IMG/VR virus record: IMGVR_UViG_3300033153_010090
Strand: one strand, 5' to 3'
Length of the DNA: 20,000 bases
DNA from: an uncultured virus (IMG/VR IMGVR_UViG_3300033153_010090)
Taxonomy: Duplodnaviria > Heunggongvirae > Uroviricota > Caudoviricetes
The position numbers and the translations under genes are program-made. The notes beneath the pieces were generated by a model that was not told the origin of the DNA, did not search any database, and was given only the letters and a program-made list of their open reading frames with translations. This document shows positions 3,322 to 20,000 of the stretch, one piece after another; position 1 is the stretch's first letter, and every line of letters begins with the position of its first letter.

Positions 3322-3633
3322 ATGGCCAAGAACACCAGACTTCAGCTCATCGACCAGGCCCTGGGTGACCTACCGGTAGGAGCTTCCAGGGACCTTCGTG
3401 TGGCGCTAGCGATAGCAGCAGCATCCGCCCAAGACGGGGAGGCCCGATCGTTCCTACACGACCTCCTGTCCATCGTGGAGCAGCGTGTCGCAAGGATGCC
3501 TGGGTACGACAGGGCAGAGATCAAGCGCATCTACAGCGCAGCGCAGACGTCCATCTCTTTCATCGACCACATCATGGCGTCAGCTCAGCCGGCGGAGGAT
3601 GAGGGAGAGAAGGACCCGTTCTCGATCAACTGA
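3322..3633 (+). CDS. hypothetical protein (103 aa)
   Basis: GAGGG RBS; helical sequence. Confidence 0.75.
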   Translation: MAKNTRLQLIDQALGDLPVGASRDLRVALAIAAASAQDGEARSFLHDLLSIVEQRVARMPGYDRAEIKRIYSAAQTSISFIDHIMASAQPAEDEGEKDPFSIN

Positions 3634-3733
3634 TGCAGCTTTCCTAACACCAGCGACAGAACGACCAGGCCGCCCAGGATTGAGGCCATGATGCTCAGGA
3701 CTGGACCCCAGACAAAGATGAGCGTCAGGCGAC

Positions 3734-4159
3734 TCATGTCTCATCCTCGGTGAGGACGGCAGGAGCCTGGTGCTCCGACCGCTCATCCTCGTCCAGGACC
3801 TCATTCGCGCTCTCAGGTGGCAGTTCACCGTCAGGCGGAGGTCCACCGGTAACCTGACGAGCAGGGGCCGCAAAGGGAGAGAGCGCGAGGCCGCCATCGG
3901 GCGTGGGCCAGAACACACCAGCCGGCGCCATGTCGGCCTGAATGCCGGGCGGCACGTAGAAAGTGCCCAAGATGGTGATGGGCGGCTTGCTAGTGTCGAC
4001 CGGAGCAGACCGAACGGACGGGGCGCCCGGGGGCGGCCCAGGAGGACCACCAGGGATCGCAGGACCTCCCATAGCAGGAGGTAGCTGACCGAGGTCAGTG
4101 ATGATCCGCCGTTCGTCCGGCGGTGGCATCTTCGGACGACCGTTGTCTCCTTCACCCAT
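3734..4159 (-). CDS. proline-rich, probably disordered hypothetical protein
   Basis: AAGGAGG RBS on minus strand; possible TTGACC-17-GATACT promoter at 4214-4186. Confidence 0.7.
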   Translation of the reverse strand: MGEGDNGRPKMPPPDERRIITDLGQLPPAMGGPAIPGGPPGPPPGAPSVRSAPVDTSKPPITILGTFYVPPGIQADMAPAGVFWPTPDGGLALSPFAAPARQVTGGPPPDGELPPESANEVLDEDERSEHQAPAVLTEDET

Positions 4160-4276
4160 GACTTCCTCCTTGATGAAACCAGCAGAGTATCATTCTGGCA
4201 CGAAGAGAGGTCAAGGACAACTTTTTGCGGTTTCTCTGTAACCACAGAAAACTCTTCTTCACTACTCACCGCCGTA

Positions 4277-4358
4277 TACCCCCCCCCCCTAAGAATATAA
4301 TACACTGAACACATGAATTGTTTATATATAGTATTAGGAGTAAGGGGGGAGGGGGGTA
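4277..4358. repeat. C11 / G6AG6 inverted homopolymer arms around an AT-rich core
   Basis: TA-C11 at 4277-4289 and G6-A-G6-TA at 4344-4358 flank about 54 nt of AT-rich DNA in a divergent intergenic region. Confidence 0.55.
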
Positions 4359-4461
4359 CTTTTTCTGTCACGGAGAGACTCTCTCTTCTCCCTGTAGAGA
4401 AATCGCCGTTGGCGATGAATGGTACATTCTCTGTTAAAACAGCGTGCACTACAGGCTTTGT

Positions 4462-4475
4462 TTTTGGTATAAGAA
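4462..4475 (+). promoter_or_regulatory. repeated phage promoter-like motif (TTTTGGTATAAGAA)
   Basis: Matches the 14-copy motif, including the downstream AGGTG. Confidence 0.65.
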
Positions 4476-4547
4476 AGGTGCGGAGAAACGGTGATGGCCT
4501 CCATGACTCCGCTGGAGGTATGGGCCCTTCGGGGCCCTGCCTCTTTT
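4476..4547 (+). ncRNA. candidate small RNA or attenuator leader with an anti-RBS segment
   Basis: Lies between the promoter motif and a GAGGTA-T-GGGCCC-TTCG-GGGCCC-TGCCTC-TTTT terminator; contains TGATGGCCTCC. Confidence 0.4.
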
Positions 4548-4566
4548 GACTTCCTGAGGAGTGCAC

Positions 4567-4950
4567 ATGTTCACGCACAAAGAGATCGTCGGGGCTCTCG
4601 ACATCAACCACCGGCAGCTTCTTTATTTTACGGATAAAGGGATCGTCTCTCCTGCTCAGCGAGCTGCGGGTCGAGGCTCCACTCATGTCTACTCGAATGA
4701 GGGCGTGGCAGAGACTCGGCTTGCCATCCTCCTGCGCGACGCGGGCTTCACCTTCGAGCGCATCAAGGACATGCTGGACGTCTACCGCGCTCTGGTGGAG
4801 GAGGTGCAGCCTGGTCATCGATTGATCATTGACGGCGACCAAGCCTACCTCTCTGACCTTGGAGAGCAGCCCTTCGACAGTCCCGTCGGTCTCTCCCTCG
4901 ACCTCACCGGCCTCGGTGCTCCGCTGCCCTCCGCCGAGAACGCCAGCTAG
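4567..4950 (+). CDS. MerR-family HTH transcriptional regulator
   Basis: FTHKEIVGALDINHRQLLYFTDKGIVSP...GSTHVYS...LRDAGFTFERIK fits the MerR winged-HTH pattern; GAGGAG RBS. Confidence 0.85.
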   Translation: MFTHKEIVGALDINHRQLLYFTDKGIVSPAQRAAGRGSTHVYSNEGVAETRLAILLRDAGFTFERIKDMLDVYRALVEEVQPGHRLIIDGDQAYLSDLGEQPFDSPVGLSLDLTGLGAPLPSAENAS

Positions 4951-4971
4951 TTCGGCCCTCCTTCTTGGGCT

Positions 4972-5043
4972 GGTGTCGCTCAGTAGCCTCCTGGTAATCC
5001 CCCCGCCAGGTCAGGGCTGCTGGGCGACACCCTTTTCTCTTTT
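4972..5043 (+). terminator. long hairpin followed by a T-rich tract
   Basis: GGTGTCGCTCAGTAGCC pairs with GGCTGCTGGGCGACACC (17 bp, two G-U), inner CCTGG/CCAGG stem, then CTTTTCTCTTTT. Confidence 0.6.
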
Positions 5044-5066
5044 GCCCGCGGTCAATTAGACCCTGA

Positions 5067-5080
5067 TTTCGGTATAAGAA
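5067..5080 (+). promoter_or_regulatory. repeated phage promoter-like motif (TTTCGGTATAAGAA)
   Basis: CCTGATTTCGGTATAAGAATA is identical to the copy at 2554-2574. Confidence 0.7.
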
Positions 5081-5247
5081 TAGTGTGAAGAAGGAACGTG
5101 AGTTCCGTCTTCGGGTCCGCTGATCCGTCTTGCGGTGGTGCGGGTCTATGTAGTCGGGTTTTACCGCCACCCGGCGAGGGTCTGTGCTTCAAAGGTACCA
5201 GGCAGACCCGGAGAGAGTGTGCGCGCTGCGGCAGCACCTCTCTTTAG
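5081..5247 (+). ncRNA. candidate structured non-coding RNA (~165 nt)
   Basis: Own promoter motif and hairpin-TTAG end; consecutive stems including GAAGA-A-GGAAC-GTGA-GTTCC-G-TCTTC (GNRA loop) and GGGTCTG/CAGACCC; no well-spaced RBS. Confidence 0.45.
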
Positions 5248-5272
5248 TTTGTACTCAGAATTCTTAGCCCCT

Positions 5273-5286
5273 CTTCGGCATAAGAC
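5273..5286 (+). promoter_or_regulatory. repeated phage promoter-like motif (CTTCGGCATAAGAC)
   Basis: Variant copy upstream of AAGGAGG RBS and ATG 5322. Confidence 0.6.
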
Positions 5287-5321
5287 AGGTAGATAGCCCC
5301 ATCTTTGCCAAGGAGGAACTG

Positions 5322-5948
5322 ATGCAGAGCATTCCAATCTCTGTGGGCAAGAAACTCGAGAAGCTCTACCGCGAGAGGATTCAGCATGGAGAGTGGAAGG
5401 ACTGGCTTCCGGTGGACTTCGATTATGGGTTCGTCTGCTGCATCGGAGCAGGCCCGTGGACACTCAAGAGACGCTACGATGTGCAAGAAGCAGCGATGAA
5501 TTGGTATCGAAGCAACGAACCCATGGAGTTCATTGGTGAGCGCCAGCTGCAGGTGAGCTGCTACCCACTGCAGTGGCAGAACAGCATGCTCGAGCGCATG
5601 TGTCGCTACCTCTACGACGGTGGCTGGACTATGGAGTCGTTTGGCTACGCGCTCATCGGTCTGGCTGAGAAAGAGATGTGGAGTGACGCGCTCCATGTTC
5701 TCCATCACGCTGCCAACAATGGCCGGCGCACCAAAGTGGTCTCGCTCTACGCACGCGACTTCTTGAAGATCCCTGCGTTCCCGATTGACCGCCATGTCAA
5801 ACGCGTACTCGTCGCGAACGGACTTCCGACGAAGGAGGACGTCCTCATCAGTGAGTGCTTGGACTATGGCCTCGACCCCTGCAGGGTGGCCCGGTCTCTC
5901 TTCTACGCCAGCGTGAGTTCGGGTAACCCAGCTCACAATTCGGAATAA
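5322..5948 (+). CDS. HhH-GPD superfamily (endonuclease III-like) DNA glycosylase, divergent
   Basis: TKVVSLY...AFPIDRHVKRV matches the HhH Lys plus the (F)PVDxHVxR catalytic-Asp motif; no C-terminal 4Fe-4S Cys cluster. Confidence 0.65.
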   Translation: MQSIPISVGKKLEKLYRERIQHGEWKDWLPVDFDYGFVCCIGAGPWTLKRRYDVQEAAMNWYRSNEPMEFIGERQLQVSCYPLQWQNSMLERMCRYLYDGGWTMESFGYALIGLAEKEMWSDALHVLHHAANNGRRTKVVSLYARDFLKIPAFPIDRHVKRVLVANGLPTKEDVLISECLDYGLDPCRVARSLFYASVSSGNPAHNSE

Positions 5949-5951: not shown

Positions 5952-5975
5952 GAGTAGACAAACCAAGGAGGCCAT

Positions 5976-6710: not shown

Positions 6711-6736
6711 AGGTGTCGGAAAGGAGGCCATCAATT

Positions 6737-7696: not shown

Positions 7697-7722
7697 CTCA
7701 CAGAGGCTGGAAGGAGGCCATC

Positions 7723-9330
7723 ATGATCGAATTCGATACGAAAGCGTTCAACGCTGCGATGGAGAAGCTCGACAAGGAGCTTCCCGACGAGCTACCTGAG
7801 GTCAAGCGGTTCCACGCTGCGGCTCTGGTCGTCGGTGGGGACATGAAGGGAGACAACTTCTGGATCGTGATGGCTGTGACCTTGCTCGGTGTTAACGAAG
7901 GCTGGGAGTGGCCGTACCTGCTCGAGCACACCGTGAAGATTCTCCCCATCTATGTCAAGGGGTCCGGGTCGAATAAGAACCGCGGGATGCGCTTCACTGA
8001 GTTCTGGATCGATACCAACTGGGACTTCAGTTACCCCATCAGCATCTTCGCTGAGGTCTTCAGGCCCATCGCCATCGCACACAAGAAGTGCTGGTCTCTC
8101 CCGGCCACTGTCGAACGCGCCAAGGAGATCTGGGAGCAGGAGTACGCCTCGTGGGAGAAGGCTCTCCACACGCGTGTGAACAAGAATGGTGACCGGTTTG
8201 TCGATCGCACCTACCACATGATGAAAGAGATGGGTTCGACGAAGAAGCACGTCATGAAGGGCAGAGCTATTGGGAAGAGCACCGCCATGCAGTGCCCAGT
8301 TTGCAAGCAGACGAAGGATCTTGACCCCACCAATCCGTGGCACCTTGGAAAGTCCATGTGTTGCCCGGACTGCAAGCCATTCATGGCTGGTCCGCGTGGC
8401 ATCAGGTCTGATGTTCCGCACATGGACCCGGCAGACGATCTCCGCCCCGCAGTGAACGCCATGGTGCAGGGCCAGGAAGTCGACAGGATGATAGCGGCAG
8501 GCGTTGATCCGGCCACACCAAACTCAGAGGTGACCGCAATGATCGCCTACCAGACGAAGGGGCCCTACGCCTCACACCTGGACTTCGTGCACATGCGCGA
8601 GCACCTGCAGCAGAAGATATTTGCTGCGCTACACGTACCAGCAGAAATGCTTGGTGTGGTGGGTAGTGAACCTGAGAAGGTGAGCGTCGCTGAGTCCTTG
8701 GAGAAGACCAAGGACATCCCCATCTTCTCAACGATGACTGGGCGCATGCAGTGCAAGGAGCCGAACATCAGCAACCTCCCCAGGAGTGAGAAGATGGATG
8801 ACGGACAACGAGCATCAGACCAGATCCTCATCTGCGAAGGGCAGGAGTTCCTCGTTGACGGTGACTGCGTCATAGTGTGGGACCGAAACGGCTTCAGGAA
8901 GAAGCAGGGCAGTCAGTTCGTCCATGGAAAGTTCGTCCAGGACGACACCCACGATGGCCACATGTTCCTTCGCAGAGGCAGCCCTGTGAGGCTGATCGAC
9001 TCCGATGGCAAAGAGATCGGCCGGGCCGTCATCCGCGGTGATGGGGAGCTCGACGTTCTCGAGGAGGCCCTCGACATCAAGCTGGGGAAGAGCTTCTGGG
9101 CCGTGGTCGGCATTGACCGAGATGACCCCTCTGTCTGCCACGGAAAGGTGATGGCCTTCTACTACAAGTACCACGAGGACTCAGCTTACACTCACAACGT
9201 CATTCACCTGCGCCTGGATAATGGCCATGTCGCCCACTGCTCCGACAAGGAGCTCTTCAGGACACAGGAGAAGGCTGAAGCGCAGAGGATGAAGCTCCTG
9301 GAAGGGAGCAATGATGACGGCACCGATTGA
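7723..9330 (+). CDS. mosaic hypothetical protein (535 aa) with terminase-, portal- and PolA-like motif fragments
   Basis: AAGGAGGCCATCATG start; KGRAIGKST, RGIRSDVPHMD, AGVDPA, KIFAALHVPAEMLG, TMTGRMQCKEPNISNLP. Confidence 0.85.
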   Translation: MIEFDTKAFNAAMEKLDKELPDELPEVKRFHAAALVVGGDMKGDNFWIVMAVTLLGVNEGWEWPYLLEHTVKILPIYVKGSGSNKNRGMRFTEFWIDTNWDFSYPISIFAEVFRPIAIAHKKCWSLPATVERAKEIWEQEYASWEKALHTRVNKNGDRFVDRTYHMMKEMGSTKKHVMKGRAIGKSTAMQCPVCKQTKDLDPTNPWHLGKSMCCPDCKPFMAGPRGIRSDVPHMDPADDLRPAVNAMVQGQEVDRMIAAGVDPATPNSEVTAMIAYQTKGPYASHLDFVHMREHLQQKIFAALHVPAEMLGVVGSEPEKVSVAESLEKTKDIPIFSTMTGRMQCKEPNISNLPRSEKMDDGQRASDQILICEGQEFLVDGDCVIVWDRNGFRKKQGSQFVHGKFVQDDTHDGHMFLRRGSPVRLIDSDGKEIGRAVIRGDGELDVLEEALDIKLGKSFWAVVGIDRDDPSVCHGKVMAFYYKYHEDSAYTHNVIHLRLDNGHVAHCSDKELFRTQEKAEAQRMKLLEGSNDDGTD

Positions 9331-9763
9331 CGACTTCCGTGGTGAGTACAAGTGGCTCTCTAACTTCTGGCGAGAGCCATTCCGACACTGCGAGAAGATC
9401 TGGCCCAGCTCAGAGCACGCCTTCCAGGCAATGAAGACCCTGGACCCTGAGATGCAAGAGGAGATTCGCACTGCAGTATCTCCTCGAGAAGCCAAGCGCT
9501 TGGGCAGCCCTAGAAACACCCGGTTGGTTCTCCGTCCAGGATGGGACGCCGTGCGTATTGACGTGATGCGACATATCCTGCGGGCCAAATTCAGGTCGGC
9601 CCGGCTCGCCAAGATGCTCCTGGACACTGGCGATGCCGAGCTCGTCGAGGGCAACACATGGAAGGATGACTTCTGGGGCGTGTACAACGGGAAGGGAGAG
9701 AACTGGTTGGGTCGCCTCCTCATGGAGATCAGAGAGGAGATCAGAGATGTGTCAAACAACTGA
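9311..9763 (+). CDS. NADAR family protein (YbiA-like N-glycosidase / ADP-ribose hydrolase)
   Basis: LSNF, SSEHAFQAMK, AKRLG, AKF, LLDTGDAELVEGN, DDFWG and GENWLGRLLMEIR motifs. Confidence 0.92.
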   Translation: MMTAPIDDFRGEYKWLSNFWREPFRHCEKIWPSSEHAFQAMKTLDPEMQEEIRTAVSPREAKRLGSPRNTRLVLRPGWDAVRIDVMRHILRAKFRSARLAKMLLDTGDAELVEGNTWKDDFWGVYNGKGENWLGRLLMEIREEIRDVSNN

Positions 9764-10210: not shown

Positions 10211-10233
10211 TGATGAGCAAGAAGGAGGCCATC

Positions 10234-10467
10234 ATGCTCAGCAAGGTCTTGTCGTTCGTTTTCTCCCCCTACTTCTTCATCGTCAGCTGCTGGAATGCGT
10301 TCGTCCTGAGCTCCCGCTACAACTTCAAGGCGGGTGTCATCCTCGGGGAGCGCAAAGCGCTGACGGGCAAGGAGTTCACCAACGTGGACATTCAAGTCCT
10401 CGCAGTCCGGCTCATGGAGGAGGACCAGGTCCTCTCTGAGCATCGCAGGAGGCATGGGAGGGAGTGA
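10234..10467 (+). CDS. hypothetical protein with hydrophobic N-terminus (77 aa)
   Basis: Start reassigned from the promoter and RBS motifs; followed by a hairpin-TTAG element. Confidence 0.75.
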   Translation: MLSKVLSFVFSPYFFIVSCWNAFVLSSRYNFKAGVILGERKALTGKEFTNVDIQVLAVRLMEEDQVLSEHRRRHGRE

Positions 10468-10847: not shown

Positions 10848-11276
10848 ATGACGAAGAGACTCATTCTGATGGTAGGGTTCCCGCGCAGCGGGAAGAGCAC
10901 GAGGGCCCGTGGGCTTAGTCACCAACTCGGTGCACCCATCGTCAACCCGGACAGCATCCACAAGGTGGTGCACGGCACAGCCTACCGTGACGAGGCGAAC
11001 CCCATCGTCTGGGGCGTCGCCAAGACCATGGTCCGCGCTCTCTTCGAGGCTGGGCACGACGTGGTCATCGTCGACGCGTGCAACAACACCAAGCAGCGGA
11101 GGCAGGAGTGGAAAGACTGGTCTGGGGAGATCTGGGAGCGAGACTACGTCGAGTGCGGCACCTCTGCGGAGGAGTGCCTCAAGCGTCTGGACGACTCCAA
11201 CCAGCAGCTCACCAAGATCATTTGGCGGATGGCTCGACAGCACGAGTCCGTGAACCAGAAGGAGGAGACTCCATGA
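10848..11276 (+). CDS. P-loop kinase, AAA_33 / polynucleotide-kinase-like
   Basis: LILMVGFPRSGKST Walker A; VIVDACN...RR..W; C..R lid motif. Confidence 0.85.
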   Translation: MTKRLILMVGFPRSGKSTRARGLSHQLGAPIVNPDSIHKVVHGTAYRDEANPIVWGVAKTMVRALFEAGHDVVIVDACNNTKQRRQEWKDWSGEIWERDYVECGTSAEECLKRLDDSNQQLTKIIWRMARQHESVNQKEETP

Positions 11277-11863
11277 AAGACGCTCGAGTCATCGAGGAGG
11301 CCATGCACGCCAAGGGCTACGCGGTTTTCACCGACACCGCCAAGGGGTACGACCTCAACATCTTTGGCATCCGAACGACGAACAACGACGCCAACACATT
11401 CAACGACACCGTCGGGGTGATGTACCTCTACGAAGGTCGCTGGTGCTGCTTCCTATTCCCGGCCACGACTGACCCGGGAGTCTACTACCGCGAGAATCCG
11501 ATGAACGTCGACGGCACGGCCATCCTGGTCCCTGGGCAGTACCGCGGCGCCTACAAGATCGGGGAGCACAAGCACTACCCCGCGTTGGTGCAGAAGAAGG
11601 CCGTGAAGGTCTACCGCGACAACGACGAGGACAAGCAGCTGGACATGAAGACGGAGACCGTCAAGGAGGGGTACTTCGGCATCAACATCCACCGGGCAAA
11701 CTCGGCCGCGGCAAGCACCCTGGTGAACAAGTGGAGCGCCGGCTGCCAGGTCATCGCTGACCCCTACCAGTTCGAGTTCCTGATGTCACTGTGCCACAAG
11801 GCCGCCAGCCTCCACGGCAACGGCTTCACCTACACCCTTTTGACCGAGGACGACTTCGCGTAG
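11273..11863 (+). CDS. putative cell-wall enzyme with YkuD/L,D-transpeptidase-like catalytic motif
   Basis: AAGGAGG RBS; ATTDPG, PGQY and GINIH-x13-WSAGCQV (H...SxGC). Confidence 0.6.
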   Translation: MKDARVIEEAMHAKGYAVFTDTAKGYDLNIFGIRTTNNDANTFNDTVGVMYLYEGRWCCFLFPATTDPGVYYRENPMNVDGTAILVPGQYRGAYKIGEHKHYPALVQKKAVKVYRDNDEDKQLDMKTETVKEGYFGINIHRANSAAASTLVNKWSAGCQVIADPYQFEFLMSLCHKAASLHGNGFTYTLLTEDDFA

Positions 11864-15615: not shown

Positions 15616-15637
15616 GAGTACAGAAAAGGAGGCCATC

Positions 15638-15808
15638 ATGAGCGAGAAGATTCAGCGGGAAAGCCATCTGCCGGGGAAGCTCGAGGAGAAGCTCGTGGAG
15701 CTCGAGGAGGTGATGAAGCAAAGCCGTGCTGCCCCTGAAGGAAGCGTGGAGAAGGTCAAGCTCATCCAGAAGGAGAACGAGCTCCGACGCGCACTGCTGG
15801 GACAGTAA
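15638..15808 (+). CDS. small coiled-coil hypothetical protein (56 aa, MSEKIQRESHLPGKLEEKL...)
   Basis: Promoter motif and canonical RBS; below the ORF-track cutoff. Confidence 0.75.
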   Translation: MSEKIQRESHLPGKLEEKLVELEEVMKQSRAAPEGSVEKVKLIQKENELRRALLGQ

Positions 15809-19199: not shown

Positions 19200-19469
19200 T
19201 CAGTCCTCCAGGTAGGGGTCCAAGGCCACGTTGTAGCCGCCGGCGTGGGCGAGCCACATGTAGTCGTGGGCCTTGCGAGCCGTCATTGCAACGGCCTGGG
19301 AGAACTGCTCGCGGATGGGCTTGGGCATATGCTTGCCGTCACGCTGGAAGATCTCCATCAGGAGCTTCGCGTTCTCAAGCTCGGCAGCACCTATGCGGTA
19401 GAACACCTGCATCCGAACAAGGTGGGTCTTGGCGCGATCGTAGTCCTGTGCCATGTGCAGAGGGTTCAT
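19200..19469 (-). CDS. hypothetical protein (89 aa)
   Basis: AAGGAGGCCATCATG start after the promoter motif. Confidence 0.85.
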   Translation of the reverse strand: MNPLHMAQDYDRAKTHLVRMQVFYRIGAAELENAKLLMEIFQRDGKHMPKPIREQFSQAVAMTARKAHDYMWLAHAGGYNVALDPYLED

Positions 19470-19492
19470 GATGGCCTCCTTCTTTGGTACCT

Positions 19493-19786: not shown

Positions 19787-20000
19787 TGTCGTACATCCCC
19801 CTCACATCTGCTGCCATCTCGAGGTCCGTCGGTCTGAAGTAACTCATCGCATCCTCCCACCCAAAGGGGCGGAATCCTGTCTACCGTAGCATGAGATGTC
19901 AAGCAGTGAATTGACCGCGGTCGATTGAAGGTCTGGATGGCAGATAATGCCATGGCTCCAACGGCACTAGCTCGCAATGGTACACGAGTTGTCACACAGC

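Follow-up and report, generated by a model that had tools for sequence, protein, structure and literature searches.

A candidate leader RNA complementary to the shared ribosome-binding sites of cassette genes in an uncultured phage

Upstream of a MerR-family gene of an uncultured phage, a promoter-like motif runs directly into a predicted intrinsic terminator, and a segment between the two is the exact complement of the ribosome-binding site (RBS) with which several other genes of the same phage begin. Does this short unit encode an RNA acting in trans on those genes, a leader acting in cis on the MerR gene, or neither? A trans-acting shut-off RNA for the regulon and an attenuator of the MerR gene were the two functions proposed in the first-pass annotation. 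Both fit everything we computed, but the evidence does not separate them, and in the following we weigh them together with the remaining explanations. The window, i.e. the whole stretch of 20,000 nucleotides that was analysed, has a G+C content of 58.7% and looks like the early/accessory region of the phage. A family was assigned to few of the 42 scanned ORFs, most being without one. The coordinates of all features are compiled in Table 1.

The unit upstream of the MerR gene and its surroundings

The promoter-like motif TTCGG[TC]ATAAGAA occurs in 14 copies in the window, 12 on the plus and two on the minus strand, if up to four substitutions are allowed and ATAAG is kept. All copies are oriented with the gene they precede. 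The motif contains a -10-like TATAAG. Downstream of the motif, a conserved NRRT precedes a purine, which we take as the probable transcription start on the grounds of its spacing and its position 7 nt past the hexamer. Seven of the 14 copies are closely preceded by a GC-rich hairpin that frequently has a UUCG loop and is followed by a (C/U)UUAGCC tail. Thus, the genes sit in terminator-promoter-RBS cassettes. Within about 12-40 nt after nine of the 14 copies, GGAGGCCA is found together with a start codon. As the RBS motif and the start codon follow so closely on the presumed start sites, the 5′ leaders of the cassette mRNAs would be very short, at about 18-22 nt.

Two further observations concern the cassettes. 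The full cassette RBS GGAGGCCATCATG is also present at 7713-7725 before the gene of a 535-aa protein, where no promoter core lies directly upstream; the motif therefore travels with start codons and not only with promoters. Furthermore, a perfect 14-bp palindrome, TTGACCGCGGTCAA, occurs at 926-939, 5042-5055 and 19911-19924. It has seven matches at up to three mismatches versus 0.83 expected, and degenerate copies of the ACCCGCGG type are located immediately upstream of four promoter copies (about 10186, 14617, 15151 and 15591). This palindrome is possibly the operator of a dimeric regulator, which might be the MerR-family protein.

The unit under study starts with one of the 14 motif copies. 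The first-pass annotation had placed it at position 4462; the copy is indeed present, but its core begins at 4463. Its -10-like TATAAG occupies 4468-4473 and is directly preceded by TGG, providing an extended -10-like TG. Transcription would start at the conserved purine G4480, the first base of hairpin P1. P1 alone amounts to -8.6 kcal/mol, and its loop displays UGAUGGCCUCC; the U of AUG can form a further, G-U pair with the adjoining G4491. The RNA thus folds as had been proposed, and opening of the anti-RBS (4492-4502) is predicted to cost 4.1 kcal/mol. The UUCG terminator announced downstream of the promoter copy was likewise found. Its hairpin (4515-4543; stem GAGGUA.GGGCCC / GGGCCC UGCCUC) has a full-stem energy of -23.5 kcal/mol and is followed by UUUU at 4544-4547, only four U residues. 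In style it is similar to the hairpins upstream of other promoter copies. Folding of the 72-mer gave a minimum free energy (MFE) of -36.4 kcal/mol (z = -3.3). Promoter copy 4463 and terminator 4515-4547 would constitute a self-contained unit yielding a candidate RNA of ~68 nt (4480 to about 4547).

The ATG of the MerR gene at 4567 is located 20 nt after the terminator and is preceded by the Shine-Dalgarno (SD) sequence GAGGAG at 4555-4560. No promoter copy lies between terminator and gene. At the sequence level, the candidate unit has a terminator in the 5′ UTR, directly 3′ of a promoter-like core and 5′ of a gene without a promoter of its own.

Table 1. Positions of the features in the window and of the sequences aligned to it.
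Feature	Position	Strand	Remarks
Promoter-like core TTTGGTATAAGAA	4463-4475	+	one of 14 motif copies; presumed promoter
Hairpin P1, GCGGAG (4480-4485) / CUCCGC (4507-4512)	4480-4512	+	6 bp, 21-nt loop; MFE and centroid folds
Anti-RBS TGATGGCCTCC	4492-4502	+	in P1 loop; exact complement of cassette SD-spacer-start motif
Antiterminator-like hairpin, CCUCCA (4498-4503) / UGGAGG (4513-4518)	4498-4518	+	excludes P1 and lower terminator stem
Intrinsic terminator (predicted)	4515-4547	+	12-bp interrupted stem, UUCG loop, UUUU; from fold
MerR-family HTH gene, 127 aa	4567-4950	+	Pfam MerR_1, E 5.5e-9
Exact target RBS, gene 6737	6723-6733	+	after promoter 6698; net -10.2 kcal/mol
Exact target RBS, gene 7723 (535 aa)	7713-7723	+	no promoter core directly upstream; net -13.4 kcal/mol
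Exact target RBS, gene 10234	10224-10234	+	after promoter 10198; net -11.9 kcal/mol
Exact target RBS, gene 15638	15628-15638	+	after promoter 15603; net -8.2 kcal/mol
Exact target RBS, gene 19469..19200	19469-19479	-	after promoter (-)19505; net -15.8 kcal/mol
Partial target (9 nt, GGAGGCCAT), gene 5976	5967-5975	+	net -14.3 kcal/mol
8-nt target (GGAGGCCA), gene 7325	7316	+	net -7.4 kcal/mol
8-nt target (GGAGGCCA), gene 14242	14233	+	net -13.1 kcal/mol
8-nt target (GGAGGCCA), gene 14687	14678	+	net -0.6 kcal/mol
8-nt target (GGAGGCCA), gene 15199	15189	+	net -13.1 kcal/mol
Promoter-like copies	2560, 4463, 5068, 5274, 5939, 6698, 7278, 10198, 14207, 14629, 15163, 15603	+	
Promoter-like copies	19156, 19505	-	
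NADAR domain	9311-9763		
Polynucleotide-kinase-like P-loop protein	10848-11276		
PHROG-3000 protein	within 11078-11863		
X3, marine sediment	4279-4514		12 base differences, 2 gaps in 236 nt
X2, marine sediment	4370-5009		54 base differences, 5 gaps in 640 nt
X1, marine sediment	4422-4637		12 base differences, 1 gap in 216 nt

The source's gene caller placed no gene in 4160-4566, and none of the seven small ORFs in the gaps 4160-4566 and 5068-5321 is present in the protein collection. A scan for tRNA and tmRNA found none. Rfam returned no match at gathering scores in the whole window; at E values of up to 5 it returned two in the region 4100-5400, both spurious and neither overlapping 4476-4547. 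Two candidate frames were rejected. A minus-strand gene start at 4504 has GGAG only 2 nt from its ATG and no promoter copy, and its ORF was not called. A 78-aa frame (4313-4549) had 35 matches among 1.84 billion representatives, all of them long repetitive proteins of 511-5022 aa, which we take as low-complexity artefacts. On the minus strand, a frame of 420 codons (3580-4842) extends over the small-RNA unit, the whole intergenic region and some of the MerR gene. It overlaps two source-called genes and is in all likelihood a spurious frame of high-GC DNA.

Two neighbouring elements deserve mention in their own right. The divergent intergenic region contains an inverted repeat, GTATAC(11)T / AG(6)AG(6)TAC, at 4274-4359 with a 52-nt AT-rich spacer and minus-strand sigma-70-like hexamers nearby; the repeat perhaps represents an origin-like element or the region that controls the leftward gene. 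Downstream of the MerR gene, promoter copy 5068 leads into ~170 nt of structured RNA (MFE -73.3, z -2.4) ending in a hairpin and UUU before promoter 5274. In this unit (5068-5262) the source called no gene, and no notable complementarity to the cassettes was seen for 5081-5250. It may represent another non-coding RNA or else a short ORF rich in Cys (GTG 5098, 49 aa).

Complementarity to the cassette ribosome-binding sites

The complement of the anti-RBS, GGAGGCCATCA, had been reported at the RBS of five genes, and all five sites proved to be exact (four on the plus strand, starting at 6723, 7713, 10224 and 15628, and one at 19469-19479 on the minus strand). Four of them read GGAGGCCATCATG, and pairing therefore reaches the AUG with one extra G-U pair contributed by G4491, as the first-pass annotation had stated. 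At the fifth site (6723) the ATG is 4 nt further on. When one mismatch is tolerated, GGAGGCCATCA has eight matches compared to 0.69 expected, a number reached by none of 200 shuffles. The shorter GGAGGCCA occurs 12 times in the window, ten times on the plus and twice on the minus strand. Eleven of these copies are in sense orientation, nine after promoter copies, one at gene start 7723 and one inside ORF 11108-11863. Antisense orientation relative to local transcription is confined to the twelfth, at 4495. Moreover, the exact 11-mer complement of the RBS variant that is repeated most often sits in the sole promoter-proximal segment with a terminator immediately behind it.

When the window is modelled as a first-order Markov chain, the 11-mer is expected 0.010 times per 20-kb strand and 1.3e-5 times in a leader of 35 nt. 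Given CCTCC, which is found 34 times on the plus strand, the probability that the six 5′ bases match as well is 3.3e-4 in the same model. The signal is the complement to a repeated RBS motif, not the matching of five sites. Other exact 11-nt complements of the 68-nt RNA arise in the window by chance, namely those of 4531-4541, 4524-4534 and 4490-4500 in a target of 40 kb, and in a blind duplex scan some coding sites score equal to RBS sites. The observation itself is confirmed as real and non-random.

As judged by folding combined with duplex and cofold prediction against the start sites, a check akin to the one suggested along with the original proposal, pairing turned out to be selective for promoter-proximal genes and to spare MerR. 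The mean energy of the loop-to-start-site duplex was -21.3 kcal/mol for 11 promoter-proximal genes versus -14.2 kcal/mol for 31 others (Mann-Whitney p 1.6e-4) and was reached by none of 500 loop shuffles, figures which, like those of the cofolds, rest on a hand-made list of gene starts, restate the prompting complementarity and are not independent of it. With presumed 5′ ends, cofolding gave a net gain of -7.4 to -15.8 kcal/mol in ten of 12 cassette 5′ ends, and the terminator stayed intact. Gains were weak or nil for genes 14687 (-0.6), 2599 (-2.8) and 5322 (0.0), and the gain was 0.0 at the MerR start site. According to these models, the seed would be accessible, complementary to the target start sites and able to form 11-12 contiguous pairs with five targets.

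Outside the window, the pattern of promoter plus RBS was found at two loci in IMG/VR. One of them (L003, 43% GC) looks like a chance match. The other (L004, 59.5% G+C) carries two promoter-like copies, GGCATAAGAAAAGTG and GGTATAAGAAGAGTA, at 2117-2140 and 4995-5034, one of which is then followed by GGAGGCCACCATG. In the 9 kb examined it has no protein in common with the window, and it may stem from the same host lineage or reflect the same polymerase specificity. The pattern of promoter plus anti-RBS was not found in IMG/VR. Its one match in genome contigs (L005) is located inside a membrane-protein ORF and is taken as chance.

Action in trans, attenuation in cis and other explanations

The explanation that we tentatively prefer, while holding it at less than even confidence, is that a leader-derived small RNA would act in trans to keep the early cassette genes from being translated and that read-through of the terminator would supply MerR. 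The candidate RNA, produced from the promoter class of its targets, would accumulate; a hairpin at the first base together with a terminator hairpin at the end usually makes a small RNA stable. The UGAUGGCCUCC of the P1 loop would form 11-12 contiguous pairs with the SD sequence, the spacer and the AUG of the short leaders. The RNA would thereby occlude the ribosome-binding sites of the cassette genes and bring about a delayed, RNA-based damping or shut-off. Polymerases reading through the terminator would make the MerR mRNA, which would escape because its RBS (GAGGAG...) differs and is not complementary. Speaking against action in trans, the product of a single small-RNA gene would need to suffice for silencing at least ten mRNAs that originate from promoters of its own class. 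It is possible, if somewhat doubtful, that a lytic-type phage times its development in this way by RNA and not by protein, with one early-class leader RNA that mirrors the private SD-spacer-AUG signature and shuts off the whole early regulon, and with a co-transcribed MerR that escapes by virtue of its different RBS.

Alternatively, the unit could be a leader or attenuator that acts in cis only and sets the level of MerR, a reading that we likewise consider possible without finding it probable. The short RNA would then be a by-product, and complementarity beyond CCUCC a coincidence. The position of the MerR gene 20 nt behind the terminator and without a promoter copy of its own favours this explanation, and so does the folding of the leader. 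Pairing of CCTCCA with TGGAGG had been suggested to compete with the lower terminator stem, and computation of both folds bore this out. The resulting antiterminator-like hairpin (-8.2 kcal/mol) is nearly as stable as P1. It is the MFE structure of the nascent RNA up to 4537 and ties up the GAGG that extends the terminator hairpin to the U-tract. As judged by folding, the leader can thus adopt the mutually exclusive antiterminator and terminator structures of an attenuator. Since the competing folds are near-equal and the antiterminator-like fold comes first in the nascent chain, the attenuator reading is structurally sound. The CCUCC part also has an explanation in cis, because it pairs with GGAGG at the terminator base. 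Moreover, 5′ UTR terminators with two modes of read-through are described as common in phages (PMC10914365). However, once 4543 has been transcribed, P1 and the full terminator win by about 9-10 kcal/mol. No sensor is evident: at gathering scores Rfam contained no matching riboswitch or leader family, and the leader ORF has no stop before the terminator. Furthermore, UGAUGG is needed by no cis fold, yet it matches the cassettes with the low conditional probability given above. In a variant of this explanation, the nascent leader would sense early mRNAs or 30S subunits.

Less probable is that the unit is a relic of cassette shuffling, i.e. a promoter-RBS-gene-terminator unit minus its gene, with a remnant SD sequence and ATG (GGAG...ATG 4494), an RNA without selected function and a match due to chance. 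The region is built of terminator-promoter-RBS cassettes, half of whose promoters have the upstream GC hairpin and UUAGCC-type tail, and it contains with 5068-5250 a second promoter-to-hairpin unit without a called gene. A further point in favour is the behaviour of relatives, whose homology breaks exactly at a cassette end.

Neither megablast of 3500-5500 against the phage collection nor tblastn of the 535-aa protein and MerR against phages gave a match. In IMG/VR, the exact 29-mer was absent and searches with MerR and the 535-aa protein found no relatives. The MerR alignment against JGI metagenome contigs and GTDB genome contigs returned none; a search of the JGI metagenome contigs with the MerR homologue P0005 gave two loci only (L001 and L002, 38% identity to it), which have no other protein in common with the window. 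Five MerR homologues of 71-85% identity, all beginning with MFTH, come from metagenomes, and the divergent upstream gene (3734-4159, minus strand) has a homologue of more than 90%. The MerR protein itself is recorded on a contig of 134,485 bases. To judge from equal-sized longest contigs (5464 and 5568), MerR and this divergent gene seem to share contigs in two relatives. A search of sequencing runs identified three DNA runs from two studies, with small shares, and no RNA run among the matches listed.

The segment is covered at about 90-95% identity by the sediment relatives, whose flanking pieces differ at about 7.5-12%. Among the differences listed, X3 lacks 2 nt at 4488, a loop position on the 5′ side of the anti-RBS, and beyond 4514 its contig no longer resembles the window. 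Relatives lose homology exactly after the GGAGGCCATCA ending at 6733, and X1 continues into a homologue of the 19469(-) gene, suggesting that the cassettes act as shuffling joints. Nevertheless, several points disfavour a mere relic. The chance expectation of the 11-mer is low, transcription of MerR would depend on the relic, 4279-4514 is kept at least as well as the coding flanks in relatives, and in two of them MerR has apparently remained linked to the divergent upstream gene.

It is distinctly unlikely that GGAGGCCATCA is also, or instead, a DNA operator just downstream of the start sites, bound by a phage protein, possibly MerR, and that its inverted copy at 4492-4502 would confer autoregulation. 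Conservation of the spacer CCATC beyond the need of an SD sequence is in line with this idea, as is the distance of the inverted copy from the promoter core (16 nt, compared to 12-13 nt for forward copies), and each site contains half of a palindrome in which TGATGG is joined to CCATCA. However, the 7713 copy lacks a promoter, a comparison of variants shows the motif to go with the start codon and not with the promoter, and a better operator candidate exists in TTGACCGCGGTCAA with its degenerate copies just upstream of several promoters. Least probable of all is a leader peptide of 47-48 codons from ATG 4494 (or GTG 4491), which has the SD-like GGAG (4482-4485) 8 nt before its ATG and a frame open to 4637, but runs through the terminator without a stop, overlaps the MerR start by 71 nt out of frame, has its SD sequence buried in the P1 stem and no entry in the protein collection, and leaves GCCTCC unexplained.

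Relation to known regulatory systems

Shut-off of phage early genes is known to be achieved through proteins, namely T4 RegA and RegB, repressors and RNA polymerase modifications. RegA is a translational repressor, and RegB an endoribonuclease that cuts GGAG in early SD sites. Repression of the cassette genes by a leader-derived RNA, the explanation preferred here, would share with RegA and RegB a post-transcriptional early shut-off via ribosome-binding sites. In contrast to these, the proposed effector is an RNA and not a protein. A limited literature search did not find a described phage RNA that is aimed at the shared RBS of a whole early regulon. If the explanation is true, an RNA that silences such a regulon by way of a ribosome-site signature common to its genes and private to the phage would add a new layer of regulation, and this would explain why the bases between SD sequence and AUG are conserved in the cassettes. 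Although the phage is uncultured, the unit is small enough for synthetic reporters.

Mechanistically, such an RNA would be a plausible variant of the c4 RNA, of the C-rich-loop anti-SD sRNAs and of the 5′ UTR-terminated RNAs of phages. c4 arises by processing of the transcript that also contains its target, whereas the candidate RNA would be ended by a terminator, and no sequence or Rfam relation between the two was found. c4 of phages P1 and P7 is portrayed as a small phage RNA whose complementary sequences, thought to be in loops, pair around the RBS of an mRNA and block its translation (PMC12197685). Pairing with the RBS of phage mRNAs from a loop is also what we propose here. In the account of c4, however, the target is one antirepressor operon of a temperate phage and the purpose immunity; here, the predicted targets are ten or more separate early transcripts with a private RBS.

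In Staphylococcus aureus, the Rsa RNAs and RNAIII use an unpaired C-rich loop motif to pair with the SD sequences of several mRNAs. These are host RNAs with a short UCCC seed. The proposed SD pairing from a hairpin loop resembles that of the C-rich-loop anti-SD sRNAs of Gram-positive bacteria (cf. PMC2790875). Unlike in those sRNAs, complementarity amounts to 11-12 nt and extends through the spacer into the AUG, and it would therefore be specific for the phage's own cassette genes.

The surroundings of the unit are reminiscent of the PeSLs (promoter-early stem-loops) of T4-type phages, which are presented as repeated composite terminator-promoter units bordering small early genes and marking the joints at which shuffling occurs (PMC2839356, PMC4122927). 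Here, too, repeated stem-loop terminators and promoters are located at apparent shuffling joints. The phage is not recognisably of the T4 type: no T4-type family is present among the 42 scanned ORFs, and searches of the phage collection with DNA and the 535-aa protein gave no match. In contrast to PeSLs, the cassettes include near-identical RBSs, and an anti-RBS RNA does not figure in the cited descriptions of PeSLs.

The closest counterparts in architecture come from virulent Pseudomonas phages, for which 42 5′ UTR terminators and 29 ncRNA candidates are reported from ONT-cappable-seq (PMC10914365). In phiKZ, a species of ~71 nt upstream of PHIKZ221 is described as an RNA of premature termination in the 5′ UTR (PMC10914365). 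The unit before the MerR gene resembles these loci in combining a promoter with a 5′ UTR terminator; in the Pseudomonas phages, the short RNA was observed to predominate and the read-through mRNA to be the minor product (PMC10914365). Those RNAs are thus observed and, in the account given there, carry no assigned targets, whereas the RNA described here is predicted from the sequence and comes with a specific predicted target set. If repression of the cassette genes in trans holds true, the abundant and so far unexplained 5′ UTR-terminated short RNAs of virulent phages would gain a testable function.
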